Below are positions 773-26,138 of a stretch of DNA of 26,374 bases, piece after piece (position 1 is the stretch's first letter; each line of letters starts with the position of its first letter). Both the position numbers and the translations under genes were made by a program. The notes beneath the pieces are model-generated. The model had not been told where the DNA came from and did not search any database. It worked only from the letters and a program-made list of their open reading frames with translations. The stretch comes from a virus (Duplodnaviria > Caudoviricetes). The stretch covers positions 1 to 26,374 of IMG/VR virus record IMGVR_UViG_3300037225_000760. The stretch is one strand, 5' to 3'.

Positions 773-1573
773 TTAATGAGAGATATGCCTAGACGTACGA
801 GGACCGACTCTATTGATGAGACTGAGAGAGAGAGAAGATGTCCCTGACGGGATTGTCAATCTCGGAGCCAGACGACTTCGTGAGACCTGTTTCTTGACGC
901 TCCTGAATGTCCTGAATGGTAACCAATCTGCACCTTGAGATTCACAAACTATGATCTGTCCTGATCTTGTCTGGCACCACTGCGACAACTTCTTGTAACT
1001 TCCTGGCTGATAGGGATAACCGTGTCCTTCATTCTGGTAAGGAGGATCGATGAACCATGTGGCTCTAAGATCTGGAGTGTATTCATAGCTTCTGCAATCC
1101 ACTCTCCAATGCCTGATGAGATTGACCTGGGATGCGATTCTATATCTGACTGCTTGTCCCCATTGGGAATCTGGGCGGATTCCCGACTTGGCCCAGGCAG
1201 AAGGAATCTTGCGAGGAGCGATGGATCCTTTATTCAGCCAATATCCGATCAACCACTTTGCTTCTTGGCACAGGTCATGGTCATCGACATGGAGAACTGG
1301 TATTGGCAGTCGCATGATCTCTTCTGATCTGACGTGGATCAGATAGTCCCAGACGCCACAGATGATGGGATTCAGATCGAACAATCTGATCTTCAAGGAA
1401 GGATACCAGAGAGAATAGCCAGCCTCGCCAGCGAATGGTTCTATGATCATGGAATGTCTTGGCTCAGGGTAGTATCTGCCAATCCTGTACTTGCCACCAA
1501 AGTAACAGAAGAACGGATGGAGGCCCAGGGACTTGAGTCTGGGAAATCTGAGCCTGGGGAATCTACGTGTCAT
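773..1573 (-). CDS. DNA N6-adenine methyltransferase (D12/Dam-like)
   Basis: YFGGK N-terminal motif, SAM-binding IEPFAGEAG and catalytic FIDPPY. The C-terminal tail runs into low-complexity (GA)n sequence. Confidence 0.85.
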   Translation of the reverse strand: MTRRFPRLRFPRLKSLGLHPFFCYFGGKYRIGRYYPEPRHSMIIEPFAGEAGYSLWYPSLKIRLFDLNPIICGVWDYLIHVRSEEIMRLPIPVLHVDDHDLCQEAKWLIGYWLNKGSIAPRKIPSAWAKSGIRPDSQWGQAVRYRIASQVNLIRHWRVDCRSYEYTPDLRATWFIDPPYQNEGHGYPYQPGSYKKLSQWCQTRSGQIIVCESQGADWLPFRTFRSVKKQVSRSRLAPRLTIPSGTSSLSLSLINRVGPRTSRHISH

Positions 1574-1610
1574 CTCGGTTCTCCCCCTCTGAGAGAAATA
1601 TGACGTGCTC

Positions 1611-2027
1611 TTACTCTTGTCTCATCTTGATTCGATCTCGCTTTATTCGTGGTGGCTTTAACTTCTCGGCTTCCTCTGAACTATGAGTTGCACGAAGGTC
1701 CATCAGCTCCAGCTTAATGTCGTGAATCGTGATCTGTCCACCAACGATTGACACCTCTGCTCTTACTGAAAACTCTACGTTGCCCATGTCAAGTGTGATA
1801 TTGCCATAGGTGCTGGTGGGCTCTCCTGCAATAAGATCGTCGTAATAGACGGTCTTTGTCTCAGATGTGCCACGAACATTGAATTTGATTCCTTGACTCT
1901 TGAGGAGCTTGAGCGCTATTTCAAGCTGATGAGGCCTTATCAGAAGACAGCGAGGCTCAACAGACTCAACAGAGACCGTGTCGTCTAGACTTGGGTCATC
2001 TGACTTCCAGACTTTATTCTTCGTCAT
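1611..2027 (-). CDS. Hypothetical protein
   Basis: 138 aa ORF with AAAGGGG RBS, co-oriented with neighbours. Confidence 0.7.
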   Translation of the reverse strand: MTKNKVWKSDDPSLDDTVSVESVEPRCLLIRPHQLEIALKLLKSQGIKFNVRGTSETKTVYYDDLIAGEPTSTYGNITLDMGNVEFSVRAEVSIVGGQITIHDIKLELMDLRATHSSEEAEKLKPPRIKRDRIKMRQE

Positions 2028-2205
2028 TAGGTTCCCCTTTCAAGATACTGCGACTCAGAAATGTAAGATAGATTGTTGGCGCACTTAGAAACGCCTTCTC
2101 GAATTTCTCGCAGCCAGGATTGCCACACTGGCAAAGCTGATGACTGGGCGTGATGTTGAGAAGGTCTAATGTGCAGCCACAACTCGGACACCGAGGCGAT
2201 TCCAT
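2014..2205 (-). CDS. Small Cys-rich putative zinc-finger protein
   Basis: CPSCGC...CQCGNPGC, with GGAAGG upstream of the ATG. Confidence 0.6.
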   Translation of the reverse strand: MESPRCPSCGCTLDLLNITPSHQLCQCGNPGCEKFEKAFLSAPTIYLTFLSRSILKGEPNDEE

Positions 2206-2254
2206 TGAATCCTTCCATCAACTCGTCGAAGATGACGAGACGCAATTTGCACAC

Positions 2255-2608: not shown

Positions 2609-2622
2609 GAGATTCTCTCCTT

Positions 2623-3039: not shown

Positions 3040-3061
3040 ATATGTTCCTCCTTAAAAGAGA

Positions 3062-3235: not shown

Positions 3236-3486
3236 TACTTTATGGTATAACCAAGTAGCACCAATTCGTTCGCGAATAGGTGAATTGTGTCGGGCCCGAG
3301 TCTGATTACTCGGGCGCCATCTAGCAGTGTGTGACCGACATGCGTCCCCTGCTTTGGAGGAACGTGGATCTTGAGACCATCAGACATCCACACCTTGACC
3401 TTTTCAGCGAGATCGGGGTCACTCGTGACGATGATACCTTCATCGTTGATAGACCCAATCAACTTGTCACTAGATAAGATCTTCAT
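3235..3486 (-). CDS. Hypothetical protein coupled to the upstream peptidase
   Basis: 83 aa, ATGA overlap with 3483..4295, GGAGG RBS. Confidence 0.7.
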   Translation of the reverse strand: MKILSSDKLIGSINDEGIIVTSDPDLAEKVKVWMSDGLKIHVPPKQGTHVGHTLLDGARVIRLGPDTIHLFANELVLLGYTIK

Positions 3487-4295
3487 GCTCCCTCCTTGAA
3501 GAATTTTCCATGCACAAACGAGTCTATGTAGTCAAACGTCTTTGGGCACAACTTCTCAAGCGCATCATGATGAGCCGGATTCGCATAGCGCATGAATGCT
3601 TCAGCGAACCACTCTCTTGGGTTGGTGACTGCATAAAATGTAGGAACCTTGGCCAGTGCTACGCCGCCACTAGGAGGGGCATCAGTCTTGAACTCTTTCT
3701 CTGTCTGGCCTAAGACTTTGAGAGCAGTGGCTCTGCCTTCTCTGAACTCTTCTAGCATACCGTTACGGCCATGTGCGACTGCTTCCTTGTCCATCCGGAT
3801 GCCATCGTTAGGCTCACCAAAGGAAGACCAACGCTGGAGAAACTGAAAGTCCAGATGATGGGCAAACTCGTGAGTGAAGCTGTTGACACTCCTCTCGTCA
3901 GCGAGAGCGATGCTCTGATCGCGCTCCTTGTAGAAACCGGCCAGACCTTTGGCGCCAAAAGATTTGTCAACAGCCAGACTCTGGAGTTGGCGATTCTCCA
4001 GCAGACGAGGATCAATCTTCATCCGCCTGAGAAATGAGATTCCTTCCTGGACTGCCATCGGTGCTGGCTTGCCATGGAGTGCTTTGTCGAACGTATGGCG
4101 TACACCCCACTTCATCCCTTTGATTCCTGCTTCTTGGAGGTCAACTTCCAGTGGGTCGAAGCCAAGGAGAGCTACGACATCAGAAGGTGTCTCTGCGAGT
4201 TCTTCGTCATCGTCAGCTGAGTTGTCTGTCAATTCATCGAACTCTGGCAGAGGAGCGTCTATTGCGCCAAAGTGAATGTCAGGTAGTTGGTTCAT
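3483..4295 (-). CDS. Zincin-like HExxH metallopeptidase-domain protein (lethal-factor-like) with GIKGMKWG tag
   Basis: THEFAHHLD plus downstream YAVTNPREWFAEAF (third ligand Glu). Acidic N-terminal segment followed by LQEAGIKGMKWGVRH. Start at 4295 from GGAGGAG RBS and ATGA overlap. Confidence 0.75.
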   Translation of the reverse strand: MNQLPDIHFGAIDAPLPEFDELTDNSADDDEELAETPSDVVALLGFDPLEVDLQEAGIKGMKWGVRHTFDKALHGKPAPMAVQEGISFLRRMKIDPRLLENRQLQSLAVDKSFGAKGLAGFYKERDQSIALADERSVNSFTHEFAHHLDFQFLQRWSSFGEPNDGIRMDKEAVAHGRNGMLEEFREGRATALKVLGQTEKEFKTDAPPSGGVALAKVPTFYAVTNPREWFAEAFMRYANPAHHDALEKLCPKTFDYIDSFVHGKFFKEGA

Positions 4296-5233
4296 TTTCT
4301 CCTCCATGGCGCAAAGATTACAGGGTTGATGTAACTCTGGAGAGCCACTGTCTTGGTGTTACCAAGCTTTTCAGACACGCGTTCCGCGATTACCTTGACT
4401 GCTTTCTTGTATTCCTTTTCACCCTTGGGCACAGACATCTTGGAGACTGTGTCCACTGCCAACTGGTTGGCCAAGAGCGTCCTAAAATCCTTGGTCTTAT
4501 AACGACCTTTTAGTTCTTCTCGGACGAAACCACGGATATTGCCACCATCGACTGCGCCAAACAGCCGGCCAGAGCTTCCTGCAATATCTGCACGCTTGCG
4601 GAGGTCTCCTGCAATCTTCGGGTCTTCAACTTGCAAATTGATCTTGACTCCACTCTTACCAGCGAAGCGCAGATATGTTTTGTCGCCTCTCTCGACGACA
4701 TGTCTGCCTTCCAATGTGGTAGCACCAAATGCTTCTTTCTTAGCTTTCGTGTCGGCATCAGTACCAGGCCGGAGTCCTGTCTGTAGAATAAGGCGGGCAC
4801 ACGCAGCAAGATCAGAGACCTTGGCCTCTCTGAATGTGTCCTTGCTCTTGCTCATGGTTGCAAGTTGCCGTTCAATCTCTGGCTTGTCTTTCTCGAGATT
4901 CTGGATGCGCGAATACTTTGCGGCGGTCGTGGACTCTTTGAACTTGTCAGAATAAACGTACTGATCGCGGCCAGCAGCGTCCTTGCCTATGGCAAGCAGA
5001 TCAGCTTTAGGGTCCATGGAAATGCGAACGTTTGTCCAGGCAGGCGGGATCACCAGATCCTTGATGTGTTTGGGCCAAGACTTTCTGTCCTTTGGCACGA
5101 GATCAGAAGCAGCATGGTGTTCTCCCCACTTTTGTCCTTTGATTCCGTGCTCCTGAAGTTGCTGTGCTTCCCTTAGCTGTCTGACCGTGGAAAGCTCTGT
5201 CAATTGAAAGATCGGAAGGCCAGTGTATGCCAC
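4292..5233 (-). CDS. Type IB DNA topoisomerase (bacterial/poxvirus-like) with N-terminal leader
   Basis: IPPAWTNV...GKDAAGRDQYVY, GLRPG, FAGKSG, KDFRT and LGNT...SYI give the catalytic pentad R,K,R,N,Y. GTG start at 5233 after GAGGT. Confidence 0.92.
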   Translation of the reverse strand: MAYTGLPIFQLTELSTVRQLREAQQLQEHGIKGQKWGEHHAASDLVPKDRKSWPKHIKDLVIPPAWTNVRISMDPKADLLAIGKDAAGRDQYVYSDKFKESTTAAKYSRIQNLEKDKPEIERQLATMSKSKDTFREAKVSDLAACARLILQTGLRPGTDADTKAKKEAFGATTLEGRHVVERGDKTYLRFAGKSGVKINLQVEDPKIAGDLRKRADIAGSSGRLFGAVDGGNIRGFVREELKGRYKTKDFRTLLANQLAVDTVSKMSVPKGEKEYKKAVKVIAERVSEKLGNTKTVALQSYINPVIFAPWRRK

Positions 5234-5238
5234 GAGAG

Positions 5239-5622
5239 TTACCTCTTTCCCATGAGCGCGGAATATAGAGGCTTGAAGTCCCTCCAATCTCCATCCTTCA
5301 CAACATTATCGATCTTGCCTTTGCTCAAATGCCACACGTCGTCATCCTGACTGTATCCCACAATAAGTCCCGGAGCTTTGGGGCTCGTAAAATATCTCGC
5401 GTCGCCTTCATCATCTTCAGTCCCTTTGGGATAGGAGATCTTGAACCCCAATTTGCCAAGAGCATCGTCTGGATGCATCTTGCCTAACTTCTCCACACTG
5501 ATTCCCCCTCCTTGTTTTCCCTTGCGTTGCCCCCACTTCATTCCTTTTACGCCTGCCTCCCTAAGTCTCCTGACTGAGGAAAGCTCTGCGAGACCAAGAG
5601 TCTGGATTCCTCGACAGGCCAT
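5239..5622 (-). CDS. Hypothetical protein with leader + GVKGMKWG tag
   Basis: LAELSSVRRLREAGVKGMKWG; lies directly downstream of the portal; GGAGGT RBS. Confidence 0.75.
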   Translation of the reverse strand: MACRGIQTLGLAELSSVRRLREAGVKGMKWGQRKGKQGGGISVEKLGKMHPDDALGKLGFKISYPKGTEDDEGDARYFTSPKAPGLIVGYSQDDDVWHLSKGKIDNVVKDGDWRDFKPLYSALMGKR

Positions 5623-5623
5623 G

Positions 5624-8152
5624 TTAGACCTCCTTCTTTGGCTCAGTGTATGCTGCTACTTTGTGCCCTCCGATTGGCATTACTGGAGGATTCTGGAGAT
5701 CCTCGCCGTCGGGTGGCTTCTGAGTGAATTGGCCAGTGACCTCTTTGATTTTCTTAGATTCGTGATATCCCTTACGAAGAGCACGCCTAGTCTTGGTGAT
5801 GTCAGCCCTGTCGTGAGACTTCTGGTCCATGAGCGCTTCAGGGCTTGGAGCCAAGGTTCTCTGGCGATCGATCTGAGGTCTGCCTCTATAACGCAGATTT
5901 GCAGCCTCTCTCTTGATGCCGATGGCTACATCACGAGGGTCTTTCAGAAATGCTGTCTTCCGACTGCCCGAAGTGGCTTCTCCTGTAATGATCCCTTCCT
6001 TAGCACCACCACCAGTACCAGCCGTTCCGTCGCCTCCACCTCCGCCAGTCGAATCCGGACCGCCTGCGCCAGCGCCACCTTTTCCAGCAGCTGGCGGAGC
6101 AGCTTGTCCTTTCGTGATTTGCTGGTATGCAGCGTCGATGAGAACAGCCTTCTGGGCATCCTCAGCCGCAATCTCCTCTTGCTCATCATCGTAGTTGTAG
6201 GATGTGACAGACATCTCGCGGGCAGACATGGTCGCTGCTCTTTCGTGGGAAATCCACGACATGGATTCCATAAATGCGAAGTTCTTGAGCGTCTCGCTCT
6301 TGTTCTCCTCAGCAATGGCAGCGTATGTAATCTCAACTTTGACCTTGAGTTGTTGCGGGATCTTTCCACGATCCTTGGCATCGTCGAATACTCTGGCAGA
6401 ATCCTGCTGGAAGAATGCTTCCATGATCTCTTGCCAGTCTTCGAATGACTTGATGTCTGGCTCTGTCCCCACAAGAGCGTCGGCCTTGGTGCCAGCCATG
6501 GGAAGGTTGAGATAGGTTTGAGAAATGCCGGCGCCACAAGCGACAATAACCATCATCATTTCCCAATCTGAAGTCACATCTGCCGATCCCACTTCAGCAC
6601 GAATACCTTGCAACTCCGCTGCCTTGTTATGGATCCAGACGGACCCAGGAGCCGGTGGCTGAGAAAGCTGGAGCTTCGCTTGGTCAACCTCAGTTTGGCC
6701 ACCTTCCACAGCGACGTCCAGAACGTAGAGATTAGCCACCTTATTGCGAATGACTCGATCCGACGCAAACTCTTTAATTCTTTTCAACCAACCCAGTATA
6801 GTGAACAATTCGCTGCGGCCGCGGACTTCACCAGAAGTCGTATTGATCTTCATGTGGAAATACTCAATCGCAGGAACTTGACGAATGATGAACTTGATGG
6901 TCGGGACCGGCAAATCTACGTACCACTGGTAACGTGTCGGATATTGTTGGTGGATGTAAAATTCTGTTTCGCAATCATCAGGATCTGTCACAACTTCCCA
7001 CACTGTAGACGGGTCTAATGACCTTACTTTCAGTCCCCACGGAGCTTTGAAATATCGGACGAACTGTTCACCAAAAATTGTGAGGTCACTAAGAATTTGC
7101 TTGGACCTCATGTTCATGCCATTCTTTTCCCAATGTTCATCAAGAATGTCTTGGCACTGGGCAGTGTAGTCCGCCACCTCCTCCATCTCTTCACCAGTGT
7201 CTGGGTGTTTCTTCATGTTCCCGGTTGAGATTTCAGCACGCACCACTGTGGCTTTGACTCCCTTGCCGAGGACAAATTGCTTGATGACCTTGACAACTCT
7301 TTTGGCGAGTGGATTGTGGGTAAAGCATTCAAACGCTTTTGAGTGCATATCCAAATAATCGTACCAATAAAGTTGTTTGTTGTATGGTCCAGCAAGCAGT
7401 GGGAGAAATTCCTGTGGCCGACCCATCTGTGTATCCCACGTGTTTGGCAACGCTCCGCCTGGAGACGCATCAAGAGCGAACGTGTCGCCACTGTCGAAGA
7501 AGGTGTTGTTGTCTTCTCGGAGCTTCCGAACGATGGAACCTTCTTTCTTGGCAGACTCTTTGAGGCGGGAGTAGATAGAAGCGTCCATGGTCTGGAATAT
7601 GTTAATCAGACGTGGGTCAAGTCTGATGTCTATCAATTGGCCATCTGTCAACGTGACCTTCTGCTTCTCTACAGCAGCCAACACATTCTTCATGATCAGG
7701 TTCGATTCGCGGAGTTTTCTGTACTCCGCGCTGTGAATCCAGGACTGGATGTTCGGGAAGTGAGACTCCTTGAAAATGCCTTTCCTCATGTCCTCAGGAG
7801 GGGATGTGATAATCTTGGCGTCGACATCCATCACAACAGCTTTGTCTAAGTAATGGATGGGGGTGCCCTGTGCCGATTCATCCATGTGAGAGAACTCTTG
7901 CGTCTCTTCCTGGGTAGGCGGCAGGATAACGCCATTCACTACACGGAAGGCAGACTTCAGAGGCACTCTGGCCACGATGTCTGAAGTCAGCAACGGTGCT
8001 CCTTCATCTGGATAGTCCTTCCCTGTGTTGAAGACGTCTTCCTTCTTGGCAGACTCAGCCGCAATCTTGCCACGCTTAGGCGACACCCAGGCTGTTGGTG
8101 TACTCGGAGTGTGTGGCGCATTCGTAGGATTGACTACGTTGGTAGTTGCCAT
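5624..8152 (-). CDS. Phage portal protein with long N- and C-terminal extensions
   Basis: Position after the terminase. Portal-like segments NPLAKRVVKVIKQFVLGKG, LTIFGEQF and RGRSEL...WLKRIKEF; Gly-rich C-terminal linker. Confidence 0.8.
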   Translation of the reverse strand: MATTNVVNPTNAPHTPSTPTAWVSPKRGKIAAESAKKEDVFNTGKDYPDEGAPLLTSDIVARVPLKSAFRVVNGVILPPTQEETQEFSHMDESAQGTPIHYLDKAVVMDVDAKIITSPPEDMRKGIFKESHFPNIQSWIHSAEYRKLRESNLIMKNVLAAVEKQKVTLTDGQLIDIRLDPRLINIFQTMDASIYSRLKESAKKEGSIVRKLREDNNTFFDSGDTFALDASPGGALPNTWDTQMGRPQEFLPLLAGPYNKQLYWYDYLDMHSKAFECFTHNPLAKRVVKVIKQFVLGKGVKATVVRAEISTGNMKKHPDTGEEMEEVADYTAQCQDILDEHWEKNGMNMRSKQILSDLTIFGEQFVRYFKAPWGLKVRSLDPSTVWEVVTDPDDCETEFYIHQQYPTRYQWYVDLPVPTIKFIIRQVPAIEYFHMKINTTSGEVRGRSELFTILGWLKRIKEFASDRVIRNKVANLYVLDVAVEGGQTEVDQAKLQLSQPPAPGSVWIHNKAAELQGIRAEVGSADVTSDWEMMMVIVACGAGISQTYLNLPMAGTKADALVGTEPDIKSFEDWQEIMEAFFQQDSARVFDDAKDRGKIPQQLKVKVEITYAAIAEENKSETLKNFAFMESMSWISHERAATMSAREMSVTSYNYDDEQEEIAAEDAQKAVLIDAAYQQITKGQAAPPAAGKGGAGAGGPDSTGGGGGDGTAGTGGGAKEGIITGEATSGSRKTAFLKDPRDVAIGIKREAANLRYRGRPQIDRQRTLAPSPEALMDQKSHDRADITKTRRALRKGYHESKKIKEVTGQFTQKPPDGEDLQNPPVMPIGGHKVAAYTEPKKEV

Positions 8153-8164: not shown

Positions 8165-8555
8165 TTATTGTTCTGTCGCGTTCGTCTCCAAGTCATCGAG
8201 CTCCCCATCTGCGTCATAGATGCGAACTTCCGCAAGATCGTGGTGCTTGGCAGCCATCTTAAAATTTCCCTTCTTGGCAAATGCAGTTGCTTTAGCCATA
8301 TGCGTATCCGCCATGCCAAGAAGATTGTCAGCTTGGCCGGTATCACCAAGCTCAGATGCCCCATTAGATCTATCATAGACAGCAGCAAGTTGCCCTTTGA
8401 GATCTTTGTGCCGATCATTATGCTCTTTCTTACTTCCCCACTTCATACCACGGACACCCTTTTCCTGTGTCTTGGCTGGGATCAGACTCGCGCATACGCC
8501 GGACTGATGTCAGTTCTGTCAATTGACAAAATGGCACGCCACTCATTGAACCCAT
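8165..8555 (-). CDS. Leader + GVRGMKWG-tagged protein split by a +1 frameshift (8430..8555 leader ORF; body to 8165)
   Basis: GGAGGT RBS, then ATG 8555 gives MGSMSGVPFCQLTELTSVRRMRE...; the +1 frame continues ...TQEKGVRGMKWGSKK... to the stop at 8165. Confidence 0.6.
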
Positions 8556-9231: not shown

Positions 9232-9251
9232 GAGCCTAGGCCATCACTCTT

Positions 9252-10472: not shown

Positions 10473-11118
10473 TATACTCCGGCAGCGCTTTGATATCGAT
10501 TGGTGGCGGCAGCGCTTTAGTCTCTTGAGCCTTGCCCACAAGAGCATTGACAAACATCATGACCATGTCTTTGTCCATGCCATGGGTATGAATCTCATGC
10601 TTGCCACTGATGGCCAAGCCTCCTGTGATTTCCTGCTTGGACATGACCGAGGTCTTGTACTTCGATCTACCTTTCAGTAGGTCACGCGCAGCGTCGTACT
10701 CGAAATATTGGTCGCCACTGTTCAGCGCATCCTCCACGACTTGAACAGCACGCGGGAGTTTGCTTTCCAGAGACTCATCCACATGACTGGCATATCTCAG
10801 GCAGGCTTTGGCCAAGAACTTGCGGAAAGGGAGATGTGACCGACGCCAACGATAGAACGTGTCTCGAGCCACGCCCACTATCTTGCATGCATCATGGTGG
10901 CTTATACCACGCGCTATCATCTTAGCTATTCTCTTCTGCTTCCCACTCAAACGATCGTATCCCTTTGGGATATCGCCAGCCGCAACACGCATCTCGTATC
11001 GCTCGATGCGAGACATTGTGCGGGTTGCAGGATCCTTCTGCTCTGCCCTGATCTGCTTGACAGACTTGGGTTGAATCAATCGTGGAAATCGCATTATCCC
11101 ATCTCTAGAAAGTGGCAT
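10426..11118 (-). CDS. Probable terminase small subunit (HTH)
   Basis: HTH-like DACKIVGVARDTFYRWRR; lies immediately upstream of TerL. Confidence 0.7.
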   Translation of the reverse strand: MPLSRDGIMRFPRLIQPKSVKQIRAEQKDPATRTMSRIERYEMRVAAGDIPKGYDRLSGKQKRIAKMIARGISHHDACKIVGVARDTFYRWRRSHLPFRKFLAKACLRYASHVDESLESKLPRAVQVVEDALNSGDQYFEYDAARDLLKGRSKYKTSVMSKQEITGGLAISGKHEIHTHGMDKDMVMMFVNALVGKAQETKALPPPIDIKALPEYNDDTEVQDKEERETA

Positions 11119-15844: not shown

Positions 15845-16333
15845 TCACCCCATTTTCATCATGCGAGGAAATCTCCGGACATCCCCTCCTAAGTGCTTGA
15901 ACAAATGCTTCTCGCCTTTCATGATGTCCTTGACATTCTCGCGCAAGATACCGTATGTGCTGAGCATGTGGGAAAAATCCTCTACGTCATGCTTCAAGAG
16001 CTTACGATAACCATCTCCTGGCTGATGGCCAAGAGCAGGAATATGGATAAGCTCGTGGACCATGACAAGCATCTGATGGTTGTCATCCATACTGTCAAAC
16101 CTGGTGCCCCAAAACATAATACAGTAATCGTAATCTGGCAAGAGGAGGCACCAAGGACGCTTGTTCGCACAGATAGAGGCCACACCCTTTGACTTTCTAC
16201 CTGTGTACGAGCAGAGAAATATCTTCTTCGTCTGCACATGCCCCAACATTGTGGGGAAGAGTTTCTTTGCCCTGATGAGCAGTGGCCGTAAATCCTCCCG
16301 AGTCTTCCACATCGTTCTACGTCTGCGTTTCAT
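15845..16333 (-). CDS. Putative phage metallopeptidase (HExxH...HDVEDF)
   Basis: LVMVHELIHIP...KHDVEDF; start at 16333 from AGGAGG RBS and ATGA overlap. Confidence 0.75.
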   Translation of the reverse strand: MKRRRRTMWKTREDLRPLLIRAKKLFPTMLGHVQTKKIFLCSYTGRKSKGVASICANKRPWCLLLPDYDYCIMFWGTRFDSMDDNHQMLVMVHELIHIPALGHQPGDGYRKLLKHDVEDFSHMLSTYGILRENVKDIMKGEKHLFKHLGGDVRRFPRMMKMG

Positions 16334-16626
16334 TTCTTCCTCCTTAGACGTGGGAATCTCTTGATGATGTAGAATCTTCCTGACTTCATACCAGACTTGA
16401 TCTCGTCGAATTTCTTGGCTTTCCAATGGTAAGATTCCCGGCCAGTCAGCACCAAATACAGATCGTGGCATTCTCCAGAGCAAAATGACTGCCACTCGCC
16501 TTTCTCCGAGTAATGAAGATGAGGAGCCATGCCACAGATACAAGTATTGACTGCTTTCGACTTTCTGAAGCGTGGAAATCTGTACAGACGAGGGAATCGT
16601 TGCGGCCACCACAGCTTCTTGATCAT
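16330..16626 (-). CDS. Small basic protein with CxC...FCSxxC metal site and three RFPR motifs
   Basis: CICG...FCSGEC; ATGA overlaps on both sides. Confidence 0.7.
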   Translation of the reverse strand: MIKKLWWPQRFPRLYRFPRFRKSKAVNTCICGMAPHLHYSEKGEWQSFCSGECHDLYLVLTGRESYHWKAKKFDEIKSGMKSGRFYIIKRFPRLRRKK

Positions 16627-18112: not shown

Positions 18113-19218
18113 TCCGATTCACCCCTCTCCTTCATCAGAGTTTCCTGAATCAAGAGTCGGTTGATCAATTTCCTATTCTCGCGATAGAACTGTGGGAATT
18201 TCTTCCGCGTGACAAGCTTTCCTTCAAATCTGTAGAATCGTCCTTTGAGCTTCAAGACATTCATGGCAATCGCATATTCCCACACGGCCCAATCGTTGTC
18301 GATGCCACGATCCCAGAATATGGGCACCTTACAAGTCTTTAACGGTGCGGCCCCGAACTTGTTTTTGATGGTCTTGAGCTCACACATGAAGCCAATCTCA
18401 TTGTCCTCCTTGCCCTTAATGATCCCAATCCTAGCAATACGGCAGCGCACCCACGCATAGAACTTCAGAGCCTTGCCTCCATAAGTGGTTTCTTTAGAGC
18501 CATACATCTGAGCCAAATTAGTACGAGTCTGGTTGATACAAATGAGACAGACGTTGTTCTTGAAGAGAAAGCGCACCATCCTACGAAAGAGCTTGGATAT
18601 CTGTCTTGCTGCACCCCCCATATCGCTAGTCTCCAAACTGGCCTTGTCAGTTCCCTTCTTAGCTCTCAATTCCGCTCTGGTTGGCGTTGCTGCCACAGAG
18701 TCCCACCCTATGACGATTGGTGCATCTTTGTCCTTCTCACGAATGCTAAGAACGATATCCCTGATTTGTTCATAGACATCCTCAATAGTGGCAGCATCAC
18801 CTACAATAAGCCTATTCTCGTCGAGCCCAACAGTCTTCACGCGTCTGTAATTCAACGAGAACTCCGTCGGAAATATGATTGCGTAATAATTCAGTTGCTG
18901 AGCTTTGGAGAGTGCCTTCTCAAGAACGGCAGTCTTTCCAGAGCCTTCAGGGCCAAATATCTCAATGATGCCAGAAGGAAATCCTTGGCCATAAGATACG
19001 ATGGCATCAATAGGTACGATGCCAGTCTTGACGAAGATCCTTGGAGTAGAGAATATAGACTCTTTGAGAGTGGACAAGACTCCATCCGCACTCTTCTTAT
19101 GATATTTCTTGTTGACCTTCTCGACAACTCCACGAACAACCTTGAGCGTGAACCTCTGCTCAGACGTATATTTGCGGGCAGGCGTAAGTCGCGGAAATCT
19201 AAGTGCCCTCACGGTCAC
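18109..19218 (-). CDS. recA: RecA/UvsX-like recombinase
   Basis: EIFGPEGSGKT, WDSVAA, CINQTR, YGGKALKFYA and KNK. Confidence 0.93.
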   Translation of the reverse strand: MTVRALRFPRLTPARKYTSEQRFTLKVVRGVVEKVNKKYHKKSADGVLSTLKESIFSTPRIFVKTGIVPIDAIVSYGQGFPSGIIEIFGPEGSGKTAVLEKALSKAQQLNYYAIIFPTEFSLNYRRVKTVGLDENRLIVGDAATIEDVYEQIRDIVLSIREKDKDAPIVIGWDSVAATPTRAELRAKKGTDKASLETSDMGGAARQISKLFRRMVRFLFKNNVCLICINQTRTNLAQMYGSKETTYGGKALKFYAWVRCRIARIGIIKGKEDNEIGFMCELKTIKNKFGAAPLKTCKVPIFWDRGIDNDWAVWEYAIAMNVLKLKGRFYRFEGKLVTRKKFPQFYRENRKLINRLLIQETLMKERGESE

Positions 19219-19397
19219 CTCACAGGATCAAACCTGACAGAAAGGGATTTGAGCTTATCCTCTTCATCTGGAAGCAGAGGAGTGCCCTCCGCAATGTGAT
19301 CACAAATATTGCGGAAGGCACTCGCGTCCGATGACGTCATGTACGGACTCATCAGACGAAGAAATTCGATGTGGACCAACAATTCCTCAAGCTTCAT
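19215..19397 (-). CDS. Hypothetical protein
   Basis: 60 aa, start/stop overlaps with both neighbours. Confidence 0.55.
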   Translation of the reverse strand: MKLEELLVHIEFLRLMSPYMTSSDASAFRNICDHIAEGTPLLPDEEDKLKSLSVRFDPVR

Positions 19398-20605
19398 TCG
19401 TCATCGTCCTCTTCATCATCGTCCTCTTCATCATCATCAGACTTCTTCTTTTTCTTGCCCTTGATGGACTTTTTCATTTCGTCGAAGATGGCCTCAGCGT
19501 CATCTTCATCCTCATCTTCGTCCTCATCTTCATCCTTTGACTTCTTTTTCTTCTTTTTCTTTTTGGACTTGGATTTGGACTCTTCATCGTCATCATCGGA
19601 GTCATCTTCATCTTCCTCGTCATCTTCCTCGTCATCTTCCTCGTCACCGTCTTTAGACTTCTTTTTCTTCTTTTTCTTTTTGGAGGAAGACTCATCGTCA
19701 TCGTCGGAAGAGGACTCTTCATCCTCATCCTCATCCTCATCTTCGTCATCCTCTTCGTCGTCAGAGTCTTCATCTTCATCCTCCGACTTGGACTTCTTTT
19801 TCTTCTTGGACTTTGGCTCTTCGTCTTCATCCTCGTCCGACACGTCAGCACCAGTGTCTTCATCATCGTCATCATCGCCACCATGCTTAGCTTTCTTGAG
19901 CATACTGCGGACGAAGGCCTCCAATTCCTCGTCGCTCGCCCCTTGAGAAGCTGCGTCAAGGTCGTTGAGGGTCTTGAGAAGAGCTTCCATCCGATCAGAA
20001 TCCTTGCTGATTGGGGACGGGTCCAAAACCTTGAACTTGTACTTCGTGTCTTTCATCCCACTGCCAACACGCTCAACACGGATTGGCCGGCCAGATTTCT
20101 TAGCGGCAACACTAAAAGCTGACTTCTTGCGATAGTCCTCGTCAGCAAATATGTCAACCAAATCCAGGTGCCACTGTTGAGAGACTCTCCAGATCTTGAA
20201 TTTGCCATCAGCATACCCAACAACACGGAGCTTCCCTTCATCCGATTTCTTCATCTTGCATTCGAGAACGTTCCAGAGACCTTCGGACTTCTGTCTCAGA
20301 TATCCGGAAAGCCTTCTCGCAACCTTTGACTTGTCCCCTTTTAGTCCCTTATATTTCTTGCATGCTGGACAAGAGCGAGGCTTGCCTGTCTTCTCGTTGG
20401 CGTCGTTGTGTGCACAATTGAGCTTGTTGGGATACTTGCCGTGATACAGTCGATCTCGCCAACACTCAGCGTTCTTAGACCAAGGAGGGCCAATTCGAAC
20501 GTACTTTGTACCCTCCTCTACACCAAAATATTGGCCGCCACCCGATTCCCGATCTTTCAGCTGTTTGTTGCGATACTCTTTCACCTCATCAGCCGTCATG
20601 ACCAT
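19394..20605 (-). CDS. Probable gp32-like single-stranded DNA-binding protein with very long D/E/K tail
   Basis: VRIGPP...H...C...CPAC metal site, GRPIRVER...TKY and acidic tail; lies between the UvsY-like and RecA genes. Confidence 0.75.
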   Translation of the reverse strand: MVMTADEVKEYRNKQLKDRESGGGQYFGVEEGTKYVRIGPPWSKNAECWRDRLYHGKYPNKLNCAHNDANEKTGKPRSCPACKKYKGLKGDKSKVARRLSGYLRQKSEGLWNVLECKMKKSDEGKLRVVGYADGKFKIWRVSQQWHLDLVDIFADEDYRKKSAFSVAAKKSGRPIRVERVGSGMKDTKYKFKVLDPSPISKDSDRMEALLKTLNDLDAASQGASDEELEAFVRSMLKKAKHGGDDDDDEDTGADVSDEDEDEEPKSKKKKKSKSEDEDEDSDDEEDDEDEDEDEDEESSSDDDDESSSKKKKKKKKSKDGDEEDDEEDDEEDEDDSDDDDEESKSKSKKKKKKKKSKDEDEDEDEDEDDAEAIFDEMKKSIKGKKKKKSDDDEEDDDEEDDDE

Positions 20606-20629
20606 AAGCTATATTCCTCCTTTGAAATG

Positions 20630-21085
20630 TTATTCACTGTAGTCAGATTCCGTCTTCTCGCGACGATCGTTAGCGTTCAGAGAACGAAGAGTTTCCGTTC
20701 TCTTGTCGAATGTCTTCTCAATATACTTGAACATTCGCTCAGCGTCTCTCCAACGACGAAGCACTTTCTGCAATTCCATATACTCCGAATTGCAGTAGAT
20801 CAGAGCCTTAATATCTTTGACTCGGGACCTCCGAACACCCTCCGATTTCTTACTATACTTAACACTGAGTTCGGCTTCCAGGTGTTGAATCTTGTCACTG
20901 AGACGATCCACCATTTCGCTGACCTTCGCGTACAGCGAGGCATAGTATAGGTAGAGAGATGGAGCCTCTCTCAACTGGCGGCCGATATCGTGACGAGATA
21001 TCCGCGAATGTCTGAATGGGTCGATTTCTGTGACCCCACGTGGCATGGTAATCTGGATCTTCGGTGGTTCAGGAAGACGATTCAT
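20630..21085 (-). CDS. UvsY-like recombination mediator
   Basis: Helical 151 aa protein ending ...FDKRTETLRSLNANDRRE; lies between polymerase and SSB. Confidence 0.55.
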   Translation of the reverse strand: MNRLPEPPKIQITMPRGVTEIDPFRHSRISRHDIGRQLREAPSLYLYYASLYAKVSEMVDRLSDKIQHLEAELSVKYSKKSEGVRRSRVKDIKALIYCNSEYMELQKVLRRWRDAERMFKYIEKTFDKRTETLRSLNANDRREKTESDYSE

Positions 21086-21267
21086 GACCGTTCCTCTTTT
21101 AGAAGAAAAGCTGCGTCAAGGCGACTTTGGACGATGTTGAGATCCACGTTATCGGCCAAGACAAGACATATTTCTATGTCGCCTGACACTTCAGAGAGAG
21201 GCTCTCGCTTGAAGAGAGTGTATAGCCCTTCGCCCGTAATCTTGACAGTGATCTTCCTATTGGCCAT
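21082..21267 (-). CDS. Hypothetical protein
   Basis: 61 aa, AAGGAGG RBS, ATGA overlap. Confidence 0.6.
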   Translation of the reverse strand: MANRKITVKITGEGLYTLFKREPLSEVSGDIEICLVLADNVDLNIVQSRLDAAFLLKEERS

Positions 21268-21306
21268 AACGCCTCCTTATACAATGAAATCCTCTAGACA
21301 CGAGTT

Positions 21307-23940
21307 TCAACGGAACTGACTAGGCACAACGAAACTACAGGTCATCGGTGTTGTACGCTCCAACTCAATCATGTGGCCAAGATCCTTGTCTGTCAACTTA
21401 AAATCAACATCGAATGGCACCTTGCAATACCACCCGATTTTCTCTTTCAGGAAGTCTCGGTCGGTCATGAACTCGTAAAGCTTAGGGATCACATCGTCAG
21501 TTTCCTTACGGTGTACCATGAGATAATTGGCGTCGTGGACCACATTGATAGGCTTCGTTTTCATTCTATTCTTCATGAGCCACTTTGCCATCCGATTGCC
21601 AGCCACCCATGTGAGATCTGAAGCGTCGCCCTGAATAGGCGCATTTATTCCTTGACGAACAGCTTCGTTTGCGGCACCCGGCCTAGAGTCATCTACAGCA
21701 GGCAGGTGTCTGATGCGGCCAAAGTAAGATACCACAAATTTGTTAGCCCGGATAAGCTCTTCTTGGTCATACCGATACTGCAAGCAGTTGTCGTATTTAC
21801 CAAAATACCGATCAATGAATTGTTGGGCTTTCTTAAGTGGCCAACCCATGTCAGCAGCCAAGGCTCTGGCAGAGCGACCATAGAGTAAACCAAAGGATAT
21901 GGCGTTCTTAGAGAAGTTCCTCTGATCCTTTGTTACTTGCTCTTCTGGAATCTCGAATCCAGCTGCTGCGCCCATCCGATGAGGATCCTTACCAGCCAGG
22001 AACTCTTCTAACATCTTGTCATCGTTAGCTCTGTCACAAAAGAGACGCATCTCGAGTTGTTTCTCGTCACCTTCCAGAAATAGATAGTCATCGCTGTCCG
22101 GAACGAACTGCGCTTTCAGAACGGAAGCGATATGGACTCTACTTGGGAAGTTCTCGTGATTAGGATTTTCACTCGAGACCCTTCCAGTCAGAGTACCATG
22201 TACTTTGAACGACGTATGGGTCTTGTCATCACTCCCAATCCAACCATCCACAGGCAGAACGTATTTTGTATAGCCATAATAGAATTCATTTCTCTTGAAG
22301 ATGAGTTGCAACGTTCTGTCATTCCTGTGCCTACGCTCAAGCCTTTGAAGGGACTTCTTGTTAACAGAAGGCTTGCCTGTTTTCGTCTCTAAGACTGGCT
22401 CCCAATCCTTGACTTTGAACAAGAGAGTACGAATGGTCTCGGTATTGAATTTGACGCCTTTCCAAGACTTCGTGAACAGTTCTATGGCTTTGGCCTTGGG
22501 ATTCTTAGGCTCTCTCTTATAGTTTTGGACCCTCCCAAGAATCTTCTTCATCAGATTCCATTTATAGATGGCCTCAACTTTTTTGAAGTCCCCAAAGCCG
22601 CGAATCTGGTCCTCATACTCTTTTATTTTCTGCGGAAAGAGCTCAAGCAACCTGTCATTCTCTTCACGAGAGATCTTTACGCCATTAATCTCCAGATAGC
22701 AAGCTAATTCGTTGTGCCACATGATTGGGAACCGAAATGGATTCTCGTACAGACCTTGCTTCACCAATCGATGCTTGACAATGGCCAACATCCTCCAGTC
22801 TGCAATGCAATCCCTGCCATTATAGTCGTACAAGATATCGGCCGGCACAAGGCACAGATTTCCACCATGTTCTGGATTAGTTTCTGGATGGTCTCTCTGG
22901 TAAACTCTGAGAGGTTCATCATACCCGCCCATATCTAGTTTCCACGCCCATTGCTTCAATCCGTGGGTGCCCTTCTGTTCGTTCAGAGCATAAGAGCCAA
23001 GGCCAGTGTCAAGCCAATAGTTCCGCAACCAGATTCCGTGTAGGACATACATATACACACGGTCGTACTTGCCAAACTGCAGTGCGAACCTGATGTGTTC
23101 GTCCTCCCAAAGCTCTTTGATCGCTTCCAGACACTCTTCAGGAGAGACGTGGATCTTCTTCCCAAGAGAGCCAATTCTCGAGTGTATAGGATAACAGGCC
23201 GCAGACCATTCATCCCAGCCAAAACCAACAACGCCAACGACAGGCTTGATAAAGCGATTGAATGGGCTGAGCGTGCTACCCTCGATATCCGTTGTTAGGA
23301 TAATTTGTTTCTTCAAAAAATCCGTTGTCTCTTGAAGCTGCTTCTTGTCTTTGACAACGTCACACTTGAACTTGCTTTTCTTTAGAGAGACATTCCTCTT
23401 AGTATCGTTACCCAATTCTTTGGCCGCTCTCAGCGCCTGGAGGAAATCTCTCTCGTTCTTCGGAACGTCTCTCAAGACATAGCTAGGATGGACGACGCAG
23501 ATGTAAGCACGGCCATGCGCCCGGAACACCTCACCATTCAGGCGCGTGATGCCCGTCCTATTGAGGACTGATTTTATGGCGACGTTGCCAAGCAAGACTA
23601 CGACCTTTGGATTGTAGAAATGGATCTCTCGAAGGATCTTAGCTCGGCAGAACTCTATGGCATATTTGTGGGCCTGGATATTGTTGTTCGGAGGTCGGCA
23701 CCTGACAGCATTAGAGAAGCGGCATTTCTGAATCAGGAACCCAAGCTCCTCAATCTTCTCACGAAGATATTGCCCAATCTTACCGATGAAAGGAAATCCT
23801 CGGTTGTCCTCTTCCGCACCGGGAGCCTCGCCCACAAAGAGGAAGACTGGATTCTCTGAACCTTCGCCATTCATGACAACAGACTTGCACGTGCGAAAGA
23901 GGCCACACTTTAGGCAGTCTTCATCCGACTTTCTTGTCAT
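21307..23940 (-). CDS. polA: Family A DNA polymerase with N-terminal family-4 uracil-DNA glycosylase domain and 3'-5' exonuclease
   Basis: UDG: CxxC...VGEAPG...NAVRCRPP...C...HPSY. Exonuclease: DIE, KYD, YNGRD. Polymerase: TGRVSS, DEKQLEMR, K...FGLLYG, NAPIQG, VHD. Confidence 0.95.
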   Translation of the reverse strand: MTRKSDEDCLKCGLFRTCKSVVMNGEGSENPVFLFVGEAPGAEEDNRGFPFIGKIGQYLREKIEELGFLIQKCRFSNAVRCRPPNNNIQAHKYAIEFCRAKILREIHFYNPKVVVLLGNVAIKSVLNRTGITRLNGEVFRAHGRAYICVVHPSYVLRDVPKNERDFLQALRAAKELGNDTKRNVSLKKSKFKCDVVKDKKQLQETTDFLKKQIILTTDIEGSTLSPFNRFIKPVVGVVGFGWDEWSAACYPIHSRIGSLGKKIHVSPEECLEAIKELWEDEHIRFALQFGKYDRVYMYVLHGIWLRNYWLDTGLGSYALNEQKGTHGLKQWAWKLDMGGYDEPLRVYQRDHPETNPEHGGNLCLVPADILYDYNGRDCIADWRMLAIVKHRLVKQGLYENPFRFPIMWHNELACYLEINGVKISREENDRLLELFPQKIKEYEDQIRGFGDFKKVEAIYKWNLMKKILGRVQNYKREPKNPKAKAIELFTKSWKGVKFNTETIRTLLFKVKDWEPVLETKTGKPSVNKKSLQRLERRHRNDRTLQLIFKRNEFYYGYTKYVLPVDGWIGSDDKTHTSFKVHGTLTGRVSSENPNHENFPSRVHIASVLKAQFVPDSDDYLFLEGDEKQLEMRLFCDRANDDKMLEEFLAGKDPHRMGAAAGFEIPEEQVTKDQRNFSKNAISFGLLYGRSARALAADMGWPLKKAQQFIDRYFGKYDNCLQYRYDQEELIRANKFVVSYFGRIRHLPAVDDSRPGAANEAVRQGINAPIQGDASDLTWVAGNRMAKWLMKNRMKTKPINVVHDANYLMVHRKETDDVIPKLYEFMTDRDFLKEKIGWYCKVPFDVDFKLTDKDLGHMIELERTTPMTCSFVVPSQFR

Positions 23941-24463
23941 TAGAGCCCTCTGTTCCAAGACTCTGAATATTCTTCAGCCAAGCATCAAACTCCATCGGTG
24001 CCACAGCCGCTTGCCAGCTGAGAGCTTTGATCGCGTACACTGCCAAATCGCCAAGGGTCTCAGTAAGAGTTTCTTCGGCCTCACTGTCTCCCCCAGCCAC
24101 AGCATCAATTCGGTCAAACTTCCGAGCTATGTTTGCAAAGATCCCTGGCCAACCACGCCTACACCAAGACGCTTGGTAGTGTTTGCCTTTGAATGCCTCC
24201 AATTTTGTGAGGAAGGCACACATAGCTGCAAACAAAGAAGCACTCTCACAATTTCCATTGACAGGAAGATAGAATTGTGCAACCAAAGAATCCGGTGAGG
24301 AGACCATCGAGATAGCGTTCCTGAAGCCTATTTCGGCAGCTTGAACTAATTCATCTCCATCAGTCGGCCTTCTGATAGCTGCTTCGCGAGAGGCTTCGTA
24401 GATTCCCTTCTCGAGCTTCTGTTTTTCTTCTTTCAGCTTTTGCAATGTAGCTTCATCCAACAT
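23921..24463 (-). CDS. Nucleotide modification-associated domain 1 (Nmad1/DUF1599)-like protein
   Basis: KGKHYQASW...GIFANIARKFDRI...ETLGDLAVYAI; start at 24463 after AAGGAGG. Confidence 0.7.
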   Translation of the reverse strand: MLDEATLQKLKEEKQKLEKGIYEASREAAIRRPTDGDELVQAAEIGFRNAISMVSSPDSLVAQFYLPVNGNCESASLFAAMCAFLTKLEAFKGKHYQASWCRRGWPGIFANIARKFDRIDAVAGGDSEAEETLTETLGDLAVYAIKALSWQAAVAPMEFDAWLKNIQSLGTEGSNDKKVG

Positions 24464-25613
24464 GGTTAGGTTCCTCCTTCCTGAATTTGAGAACGATCTC
24501 TTTCGCGAGAGGATTCTTATCAATCTGTCCCTTGTAGAAATCCAGCACCAACCACTTGAACAACTCTGGAAGAGATGCAATCGAACCCATGAGCCAGGCA
24601 TACTGGTCTGGAGTGAATACTGCTCCTGTCTTCACAGAGCAGTAGATGAGAAGCATCTTTGGTATAAGGAGGCCCCAGTAGCCAACCCCTGGCAAGATAT
24701 TTGCATAATGCAATGGGTCAACGAGATTCCCCTTTCCGTAAGCTTCAACCAATTGGTTGACATAGTCGATTGTCGGCTTCAGCTTCTCGTCAGATATGGG
24801 CTCAAAACTAGAGATCTTGCAGGCCACTAAGCCTTGAACGCCTACACTGCGCACAACGGATCCTAGAGCGTCTGACTGATTGGTGTCAGAAGGATGGATT
24901 AGTATTGCGTCATGAATCGTGCCCCTGCCTTCATACTCAGCATACACATGAAGATTCTGGACGAAATAGGTTATCGCTCCACACTGCACACCAAGATTAC
25001 CTGCAACCAGGGCCAGCAAGTGGGTAAATTGGACGGCATTATAGGGAGTGCCCCAAATGATATCATTAGAACGGATAGCGACAGACATATTCAGCTTGCC
25101 ATCCCGAAGCGAGAAAGCCACCCAATTGTTACAAGGGTAGTCATTTGACTCTGGCTTATTGTCAGAGATTGGGTCCCACAAGGAGATAATCGCTTGTCTG
25201 GAAAAGGGGTCTTCCTTGAGCTTGTTACAGACAGCCTCTATCTGATCCACGTAGATAGAATGGCCTACATAGCTGCCTCTACAATCCCGAATCCTCTTGC
25301 CGTAGGCCCCATGAAAATCAGGCTGGCCTTCATCAGCAAACTTCCTCATGTTAGAGTTGAAGAAGGATATCCACTCCACATTTCCGTTACCAGAGAGAAT
25401 CCATATAACCTCAGCCAGAGCGAAGAAGATGTTGAACCTCCGGCCCGGAATCTTCATAAAGCAGGCGCCAGGTGTCTCATACTGAAGAACCACAGGCACT
25501 GTCATCTCGATGCATCGCCGATCACGAACTGTGACTTGCCTACCATGGGCAATCAGATCAGCGAACAATTCTTGGTAGAACGAACCTAATCCTACTCCGG
25601 AATAGACCTTCAT
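24453..25613 (-). CDS. Thymidylate synthase-fold enzyme, probably dUMP hydroxymethylase
   Basis: GAYGKR, DQI, SRQA, DYPCN (catalytic Cys), RSND..WGTPYN and NLHVY. Asn at the specificity position indicates a dUMP substrate. Confidence 0.8.
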   Translation of the reverse strand: MKVYSGVGLGSFYQELFADLIAHGRQVTVRDRRCIEMTVPVVLQYETPGACFMKIPGRRFNIFFALAEVIWILSGNGNVEWISFFNSNMRKFADEGQPDFHGAYGKRIRDCRGSYVGHSIYVDQIEAVCNKLKEDPFSRQAIISLWDPISDNKPESNDYPCNNWVAFSLRDGKLNMSVAIRSNDIIWGTPYNAVQFTHLLALVAGNLGVQCGAITYFVQNLHVYAEYEGRGTIHDAILIHPSDTNQSDALGSVVRSVGVQGLVACKISSFEPISDEKLKPTIDYVNQLVEAYGKGNLVDPLHYANILPGVGYWGLLIPKMLLIYCSVKTGAVFTPDQYAWLMGSIASLPELFKWLVLDFYKGQIDKNPLAKEIVLKFRKEEPNHVG

Positions 25614-25858
25614 TCCTTGACTCCTCTCTTCTTTAGATAGTCCACTAGATCCTGGACCGTGACAAACTTTTGGGCATCCCCATCATCTATCTCGGCAATC
25701 TCGAAGATCTCTTCCAGATCGATTACCAACTCTACCAAGTCAATAGGGTCGGCTCCTAGATCTTCATTGAGCTTGGATTTCAGCATGACCTCTTCTTCAG
25801 ACGAACCAAGTTGCTCTACGACGATTCTTCTGACCCGATCTTCAAGAATTTCCGCCAT
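25610..25858 (-). CDS. Acyl carrier protein homolog lacking the phosphopantetheine Ser
   Basis: VRRIVVEQLG...EDLGADPIDLVELV..LEE.F...I.D.DA.K..TVQD is AcpP-like, but DSL is replaced by DPI. Confidence 0.85.
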   Translation of the reverse strand: MAEILEDRVRRIVVEQLGSSEEEVMLKSKLNEDLGADPIDLVELVIDLEEIFEIAEIDDGDAQKFVTVQDLVDYLKKRGVKE

Positions 25859-25901
25859 ATTTAGATCCCCCTTATAAGAATGAAACCCCTCGATGGGCAG
25901 G

Positions 25902-26138
25902 TTACGATTTCCTAGGAAATCTCTGAATAGGAAAGTTTAGGTTGGCAAATTGTCCATGAAAGAGGAGCGCAGCCGCATCGTATGTCTGAGCAGCTTCAAT
26001 AATGTCAGCATAAGTTCCTAAATAGACCCTCCTGCCTTTGCTGAGGTCTATTCGAGATTGCCACAGCCTTTCGCGAAGGTCAAAGAAATCCTCTTCATGA
26101 CTTCGCCTTGAACAGCGATCCGTGGTAGAGTTCGTCAT
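25902..26138 (-). CDS. Stand-alone AP2 DNA-binding domain (likely HNH-AP2 endonuclease remnant)
   Basis: WQSRI...RVYLGTY...EAAQTYDAAALLFHGQFANLNFP; start uncertain. Confidence 0.7.
   Translation of the reverse strand: MTNSTTDRCSRRSHEEDFFDLRERLWQSRIDLSKGRRVYLGTYADIIEAAQTYDAAALLFHGQFANLNFPIQRFPRKS

Follow-up and report, generated by a model that had tools for sequence, protein, structure and literature searches.

The window analyzed here spans 26,374 nucleotides (positions 1 to 26,374 of the IMG/VR record IMGVR_UViG_3300037225_000760) and is a fragment of a tailed-phage genome in which almost every gene lies on the minus strand. Our subject is RFPR, a tetrapeptide that a first-pass annotation had reported nine times in frame in six unrelated open reading frames (ORFs). 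We found all nine copies where they had been placed, on the minus strand (Table 1), and across the 36 plausible ORFs of the window (8,574 residues) RFPR is the most widely shared 4-mer. The earlier estimate of well under one copy by chance agrees with our expectation of 0.07, and 2,000 within-protein shuffles never produced more than two copies.

The copies are enriched at protein ends. Counting from inspected starts, none of the nine is more than 16 residues away from an end, which is inside the roughly 20 residues first proposed, and positions within 20 residues of an end make up 15% of the total. The motif also falls outside folded cores, as had been said of recognizable catalytic cores. 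Some details needed correction. The terminase small subunit (TerS) had been read as beginning MRFPRL, and the motif is present there, but this Met is residue 9 and not the start.

Among the carriers in the window, the methyltransferase-like ORF gave a weak D12 methyltransferase match and has a Shine-Dalgarno sequence upstream of its start. For the metallopeptidase the most probable start is 16333 (162 residues, with a strong Shine-Dalgarno sequence and the length of its orthologs), which places its gene after that of a 98-residue protein. Syntenic homologs of the 98-residue protein occur in four relatives, all with R-aromatic-P-R ahead of the core, and one of them gave a weak zf-FCS match below the cut-off (E 0.0012). 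A homolog search with this protein recovered the query alone (one of two candidates), and a search with the metallopeptidase recovered one relative. The AP2-domain ORF is probably the remnant of an HNH-AP2 gene whose HNH part, present in relatives, is missing and whose start likely lies in another frame, so its RFPR copy may go untranslated.

Table 1. Coordinates of RFPR copies and of the features discussed with them; N-side copies are given by residue number, C-side copies by distance to the stop.
Feature	Positions	Strand	Motif or remark
DNA methyltransferase-like ORF (773-1573), copy 1	1553..1564	-	residue 4
DNA methyltransferase-like ORF, copy 2	1538..1549	-	residue 9; tandem period 5
Terminase small subunit (10426-11118)	11080..11091	-	residue 10
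Metallopeptidase (PF18894; 15845-16333)	15863..15874	-	5 residues before C-terminus
98-aa protein, C-terminal copy	16348..16359	-	5 residues before stop
98-aa protein, two N-terminal copies	16570..16599	-	residues 10 and 16; period 6
98-aa protein, whole ORF	16330..16626	-	CxC...FC-x3-C zinc-finger-like core flanked by three RFPR
RecA/UvsX (18109-19218)	19189..19200	-	residue 7
AP2-domain ORF (25902-26138)	25911..25922	-	2 residues from end; DNA is a 16-bp palindrome
HMUDK_hel DNA base-modifying transferase, C-terminal part	26095..26373	-	tail HGSLF
HMUDK_hel transferase, locus L002	217..1191
HMUDK_hel transferase, locus L041	13191..14168
HMUDK_hel transferase, locus L265
HMUDK_hel transferase, locus L236
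Thymidylate synthase-family enzyme	24453..25613	-	no RFPR
Uracil-DNA glycosylase-fused family A DNA polymerase	21307..23958	-	no RFPR here or in five relatives
Single-stranded DNA-binding protein (SSB)	19394..20605	-	no RFPR; long Asp/Glu tail broken by Lys runs
Portal	5624..8152	-	no RFPR here; C-terminal-region RFPR in five of five relatives
Zincin	3483..4307	-	G[IV]KG[MQ]KWG
Topoisomerase IB	4292..5287	-	G[IV]KG[MQ]KWG
127-aa protein	5239..5622	-	G[IV]KG[MQ]KWG
93-aa protein	8165..8446	-	as MKWG

Selection on the peptide within one phage clade

The bearers of the tag form an uncultured clade of phages of about 100 kb with DNA base-modifying genes. RecA searches returned the clade at 49-61% identity, followed by a gap down to 36% or less. 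We counted RFPR in six genomes, namely the window and five larger relative records (569 called proteins); wherever RFPR lay upstream of a called start, we set a substitute start 12 residues ahead of it. This yielded 70 copies against 1.0 expected, 60 of them within 25 residues of a protein end, a figure slightly inflated by the substitute starts. Single substitutions occurred at background except for aromatics at position 2 (RYPR 9, RHPR 5 and RWPR 2, with KFPR 0 and RFPK 1), so that the motif follows a strict Arg/aromatic/Pro/Arg rule. One further locus, L206, is identical to window positions 19497-26374 across 6,878 bases and continues the same phage upstream; with locus L286 it contributes FtsK, a 134-codon frame with three RFPR copies, and two proteins with RYPR, RWPR or RHPR. 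None of 39 candidates from GTDB genomes proved to be a relative.

Selection acts on the peptide, as had been proposed from the synonymous codon variation among the window copies, which we see as described. In the 61 copies of the five relatives both Arg positions use all six Arg codons, and both Phe and all four Pro codons appear; at the first Arg the counts are AGG 16, AGA 14, CGA 13, CGC 9, CGG 5 and CGT 4. The reported restriction of the first Arg to AGA or CGA is true of the window (nine of nine copies, against 7 of 22 other Arg-Phe pairs) but does not extend to the relatives, nor to the upstream copies of the same phage, which include CGG and AGG. In the five relatives, the nucleotide pattern fell in the RFPR frame 60 times versus 15 and 5 times in the other sense frames; on the plus strand of the window MGATTYCCNMG occurs twice, at 25905 (the palindrome partner of the AP2 copy) and at 11305 (antisense to a gene). 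Orthologs conserve RFPR while the flanking sequence diverges. Of the three computational results named beforehand as counting against the motif, such as equal frequency out of frame or loss from orthologs, none was found.

Bacillus phage SP-10, the closest cultured match (RecA 31%), provides a control. It shares the gene order hydroxymethylase, polymerase, UvsY-like protein, SSB, RecA and exonuclease, and likewise has a dUMP hydroxymethylase and an acidic SSB tail with a Lys run. SP-10 shows no RFPR excess (8 pattern matches versus 5 for the control in 144 kb), and within the 25 kb that we read the ligase motif is the sole RFPR. From the codon freedom, the frame bias, the retention in orthologs and the lack of excess in SP-10, we conclude that selection acts on RFPR as a peptide and that the motif is restricted to the clade, where it has been gained and lost on unrelated proteins. 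A DNA scan of viral contigs for tandem RFPR returned at least 119 loci, 37 with a tandem RFPR reading and 2 matching clade proteins; most of the others resemble low-complexity or antisense repeats, and this make-up gives no sign of the tag outside the clade. In the literature searched, which took in few subscription journals, we found no description of a phage RFPR tag.

Taking stop-to-stop frames, 127 copies were available for comparison. I, P or V stands at residue -2 in 77 of them and L at residue +1 in 42, close repeats are spaced by 5-8 residues in 23 of 28 cases, and RFPR forms the final four residues in 5. The nucleotide composition of the window has features of its own: the antisense strand has about double the expected number of GATTYCC (14 versus 7.1 +/- 2.4), GCCAAG/CTTGGC is enriched on both strands, and A6/T6 runs and CTTAAG are depleted on both. 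Positions 1-770, downstream of the methyltransferase gene, are a long non-coding stretch rich in short repeats of the TGTC/GACA type, possibly an origin or a terminal region.

Carriers and non-carriers

Across the clade, about twenty unrelated DNA-handling proteins carry RFPR on loose ends. Of the constant carriers, RecA has it in all 14 distinct in-clade sequences with an intact N-terminus (one further sequence is truncated) and in none from 16 outgroup loci. TerS carries it in eight of eight cases, with I-x-RFPR invariant in the seven aligned orthologs, and FtsK in eight of eight, once as RYPR, in the linker ahead of the motor. The portal has it in its C-terminal region in five of six, the window being the exception. 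A 222-residue helical protein encoded beside DnaB has R[FY]PR in 38 of 57 representatives of 50%-identity clusters, and many of the 19 representatives lacking the motif seem to be fragments or to start past its position. The model of this pre-helicase protein is all helical (predicted local distance difference test, pLDDT, 91); Foldseek returned nothing from PDB or BFVD at E<=0.001, and cultured phages gave no match either.

Other carriers vary between members: the metallopeptidase (RFPR in 7 of 10 orthologs), a Holliday junction resolvase, two methyltransferase families, a 5-hydroxymethyldeoxyuridine (hmdU) kinase, the HMUDK_hel transferase, a PIG-L deacetylase, a radical SAM enzyme, endonuclease VII, and NUMOD3 and HNH-AP2 endonucleases. 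Several small proteins hold two to four copies each. RFPR was absent from the DNA polymerase (R[FYW]PR in none of six), DnaB, primase, a superfamily 2 helicase, SSB, SbcCD and the 5' exonuclease, and also from the sigma and Mor factors, the thymidylate synthase-family enzyme (likely a dUMP hydroxymethylase, as in syntenic SP-10), HU, and capsid and tail proteins. The carriers act on double-stranded DNA, and the replisome, capsid and tail proteins are left untagged.

Some further genes deserve mention in their own right. A 211-residue gene contains R[YW]PRP[LF]R[FWY][PA]R (L027:16984-17619; L071:9082-9825; L206:406-1060). In five genomes another open frame, with several RFPR copies at its end, overlaps the 3' end of this gene, possibly through overprinting or a frameshift. 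The HU/IHF-like protein (L027:17698-18387; L286:10410) has a conserved 115-residue N-terminal domain without a family match, for which a structure look-up gave matches below threshold only, and an invariant PKKK tail. A cluster of glycosyltransferase, methyltransferase and epimerase genes between the head and tail genes (L030:2764-7795; L029:13756-19755), none with RFPR, suggests virion glycosylation.

In the window itself, separate ORFs of 433 and 213 residues encode the two halves of the terminase large subunit (8590-10553, minus strand), and relatives have unrelated genes between the halves. An acyl carrier protein gene (25610-25858, minus strand) adjoins the base-modification genes; in L002 such a gene (12334-12606) adjoins the exonuclease. 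Clade polymerases share a C-terminal F-[IV]-[IVL]-P-x-x-F (21307-21390 region), possibly a separate docking tail. A second shared motif, G[IV]KG[MQ]KWG (DUF7211-like), stands near the N-termini of proteins around the portal, mostly directly after an (L/F)xE-A/H sequence. Maturation cleavage in T4 occurs after Glu, and G[IV]KG[MQ]KWG may be a capsid-targeting and maturation-cleavage signal. One of its carriers, a 274-residue protein with HExxH and a Pfam match to the ATLF-family zincins (E 1.9e-7), is probably a virion-internal metalloprotease.

Transferase tails and the beta-clamp consensus

HMUDK_hel transferases, in the clade and in a few unrelated phages, often end in a motif resembling that by which proteins bind the bacterial beta sliding clamp. 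The hexameric clamp consensus is Q-aliphatic-x-L/M-x-F/L (PMC11139829). The tail Phe is invariant in eight of eight aligned transferases, including that of the window. Two tails, QIPLTF and QLPLSF, fit the consensus without RFPR; three, QTVLRFPR, QGQIRFPR and QLVFRFPR, carry RFPR on the same Phe with Gln at the clamp position. The remaining three read RFAR, QKILEF and, in the window, HGSLF. Two members of a different transferase subfamily have the ends QGNLRFPR and QDTLRFPR, and one lacks the tail. Three unrelated small proteins have QLDLF, QLKLF or QFEMF beside RFPR. Among outgroup transferases, two or three of 61 distinct tails have a clamp-like motif. The beta-clamp family PF02767 had no match in the five incomplete relative records, with controls matching; the PF02916 profile matched nowhere, controls included. 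Together these tails suggest clamp-coupled DNA hypermodification. We read the RFPR carriers as working where host clamps sit, on new DNA, with or without the clamp as the reader of RFPR.

The beta-clamp motif (QL[SD]LF or Q-aliphatic-x-[LM]-x-[FL]) is, like RFPR, short, placed on tails and loops of unrelated DNA-acting proteins, and sometimes present in several copies. RFPR shares this location on DNA-acting proteins but does not itself fit the consensus; it is basic, has a fixed Pro and usually no Gln, is missing from the polymerase, and, unlike the clamp motif, occurs at N-termini, C-termini and linkers in phages with no detected clamp. In T4, gp33 and gp55 share an LDFL tail for the clamp gp45 (PMC9690074), and RFPR likewise is a code on several proteins, with the difference that the polymerase (none of six) is untagged. 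The AlkB homolog 2 PCNA-interacting motif (APIM), [KR]-[FYW]-[LIVA]-[LIVA]-[KR], binds PCNA and, weakly, the beta-clamp. It has in common with RFPR a basic residue followed by F, Y or W, whereas RFPR has Pro-Arg at positions 3 and 4 and refuses Lys at position 1. By sequence RFPR qualifies as neither a beta-clamp motif nor an APIM, AT-hook or UBX motif, and we therefore file it under none of them.

What RFPR may bind

The reading that fits best, which we favor tentatively, is that RFPR docks its carriers to one phage-encoded, DNA-bound hub. Recruitment of DNA-acting proteins to a hub had been put forward from the window; the carrier list fits it, and the reader is the part that we infer. RFPR on flexible ends and linkers would bind a single phage partner on DNA and so concentrate the carriers on newly replicated phage DNA. 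Phe, Tyr, His and Trp before Pro favor a cis peptide bond, and these are the residues tolerated in the motif. With hydrophobic residues at -2 and +1, the peptide would fit a pocket, possibly as an aromatic-cis-Pro turn. Binding may be weak and work by avidity, which would account for the single copy on most ring and filament proteins (RecA, TerS, FtsK, portal) and the two to four on small proteins. Because the motif is specific to the clade, the reader would be too. Through proteins that combine RFPR with a beta-clamp motif, the hub would be linked to host clamps left behind on new DNA, an arrangement suited to post-replicative base modification, recombination and hand-over to packaging.

Our leading candidate for the reader, though as a single identification an unlikely one, is an acidic zinc-finger protein. 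Its 260-450 residues comprise long tracts of Asp, Glu and Ser interrupted by runs of Lys, a module with four Cys and, in most members, a C-terminal domain of about 100 residues, and it is encoded in every clade record covering the locus, this phage included. The Cys module is 55-86% identical across members, with an invariant Phe and acidic residues at 5 of 17 invariant positions; all eight viral loci found to encode it are clade contigs, and this phage and one relative also have it as a stand-alone gene. A high-confidence model of the C-terminal domain resembles YjbR (Z 6.6, root-mean-square deviation 3.4, 92 aligned) and the DNA-binding domain of T4 MotA (Z 6.3, root-mean-square deviation 5.9, 99 aligned), matches that at Z below 8 are inconclusive. 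A homolog search with the C-terminal half found no homolog, and a structure look-up of the domain gave below-threshold matches only. In the eukaryotic protein NPM1, acidic tracts bind Arg-rich motifs (PMC4786410), a pairing of multivalent Arg clients with an acidic, nucleic-acid-binding scaffold; RFPR differs in being fixed in sequence and not merely Arg-rich, and the likeness to a condensate is one of analogy. A doubtful extension is an addressing system private to these phages, in which the acidic scaffold, present in abundance and with a MotA-like DNA anchor and a new, RFPR-reading zinc finger, builds a replication and packaging factory without a shell in the bacterial cytoplasm. Proteins that gain RFPR on a tail, invading homing endonucleases included, would enter it, and bivalent proteins would join it to host beta-clamps. 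As another potential reader we considered the acidic SSB tail; as sole reader it is weakened by SP-10, which has such a tail without RFPR. Complex predictions of the TerS tail with the SSB core, the C-terminal half of the acidic protein and the E. coli beta-clamp (median 0.26, mark 0.32) gave no answer and count neither way.

Several points weigh against a phage hub and this candidate. The zinc finger was modeled poorly, one family member lacks the C-terminal domain, and an outgroup locus without RFPR (L245) has a weak zinc-finger match (E 3.6e-5). Gene content and chemistry make up the whole case for the identity of the putative reader; many genes are restricted to the clade, so co-distribution fails to single it out, and the clade records are 43-72% complete (CheckV). 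The drop in copy number with protein length (Spearman -0.50, n=57) speaks for the hub, but the trend counts related, phylogenetically non-independent proteins. The tandem spacing of 5-8 residues suits a continuous lattice such as DNA equally or better, and the Phe shared with the clamp-like motif is more simply explained by the host clamp.

DNA itself, the main rival, is a possible ligand, though we doubt it. Here the Arg pair and the aromatic side chain would hold on to both minor groove and backbone in AT-hook fashion, tethering proteins to a phage DNA in which modified thymines occupy the major groove. The AT-hook of HMGA proteins has the core R-G-R-P; RFPR is likewise Arg-specific, contains Pro and is repeated in small basic proteins, yet it has no Gly-Arg-Pro core, and RGPR is at expectation in the six genomes (2 seen versus 1.8 expected). 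The carriers of recognizable function act on DNA, Lys is rejected at the first Arg, the tandem period is short (5-8 residues in 23 of 28 close pairs), and the clade encodes an hmdU kinase and transferases. The same tetrapeptide is also found in a ligase OB (oligonucleotide/oligosaccharide-binding) domain, where LRFPRF of 6RAU aligns with LRHPRF of a clade ligase, and in ATP-dependent ligases the equivalent Phe packs on a minor-groove deoxyribose (PMC6212786). That peptide, however, belongs to a folded barrel, whereas the RFPR tag is a free peptide in one clade. A universal ligand would leave the confinement to the clade unexplained, and neither SP-10 nor 60 of the 61 transferase loci from outgroups show an excess. 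Members differ in their modifying enzymes, which makes it doubtful that they share a modified base, and the preference for hydrophobic residues at -2 and +1 points to a pocket.

That RFPR is a non-canonical ligand of the host beta-clamp, bringing post-replicative enzymes to clamps on new phage DNA, appears unlikely. The invariant Phe common to clamp-consensus and RFPR tails speaks for it, as do the clamp-like sequences on the three small proteins and the failure to detect a phage clamp; APIM, with its K/R-F/Y/W head, binds the beta pocket weakly (PMC11139829), and phage Mu employs the host clamp (PMC12867686). Set against this, only 4 of 70 copies have Gln where the clamp motif would place it, RFPR lacks the aliphatic positions 3 and 4 of APIM, the phage polymerase and 5' exonuclease go without it, and the E. 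coli pocket is lined by Arg152, Arg176 and Arg246 (PMC11139829). Canonical motifs are already in use, and the presence of both types on one tail suggests two partners. The two types co-occur in 8 of 101 cases (odds ratio 15), a value inflated by five orthologs and the shared Phe.

Less credible still is a host protease, adaptor, unfoldase or modifying enzyme that reads RFPR as a degron, a Cdc48-like N-domain ligand or an Arg modification site and so sets the lifetime or state of the tagged proteins. Degrons are typically terminal, and a degron or a cleavage site had been offered from the window as an alternative to docking. Cleavage after the motif is made unlikely by the copies that directly precede a stop (5 of 127) and so have no residue beyond the cut, and a degron fits poorly with the portal, TerS and FtsK, the last of which holds RFPR in an internal linker. 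UBX cofactors dock on p97/Cdc48 through R...FPR, whose F-P-R triad enters a hydrophobic pocket of the N-domain as a cis-Pro turn (PMC5389986). In UBX, however, the loop belongs to a ubiquitin-like fold and its first Arg comes from a remote part of the chain, whereas in RFPR this Arg is contiguous; Pfam scans of the carriers found no UBX domain. In the five incomplete phage records no Cdc48-like ATPase was found, the AAA family PF00004 matching FtsK only.

Least of all do we credit a DNA-level element or chance with the peptide as by-product, for which the first-Arg codons, the antisense GATTYCC excess and the one palindromic copy of the window could speak, and which we rejected on the full codon use and frame bias of the relatives, the placement of matches mostly on one strand and the retention of the peptide as its flanks diverge.

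The RFPR feature is real and strongly selected, and docking to a hub is its best fit, with the partner a matter of inference. To our knowledge, proteome-wide short linear motifs in phages are known mainly for sliding clamps. The present analysis adds the alternation of RFPR and clamp-like motifs at a single Phe, SP-10 as a control, a longer stretch of the phage genome and a named candidate reader. One four-residue code covers recombination, base modification, packaging and selfish endonucleases, yet skips the replisome, and through it one can test how DNA transactions are organized in a mid-sized phage that has no protein shell. If portable, the tag would be a minimal localization signal usable in bacteria. 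The tails of the transferases point to base-modifying enzymes that, in some cases, travel with the host beta-clamp, a matter relevant to how post-replicative hypermodification keeps up with the fork.

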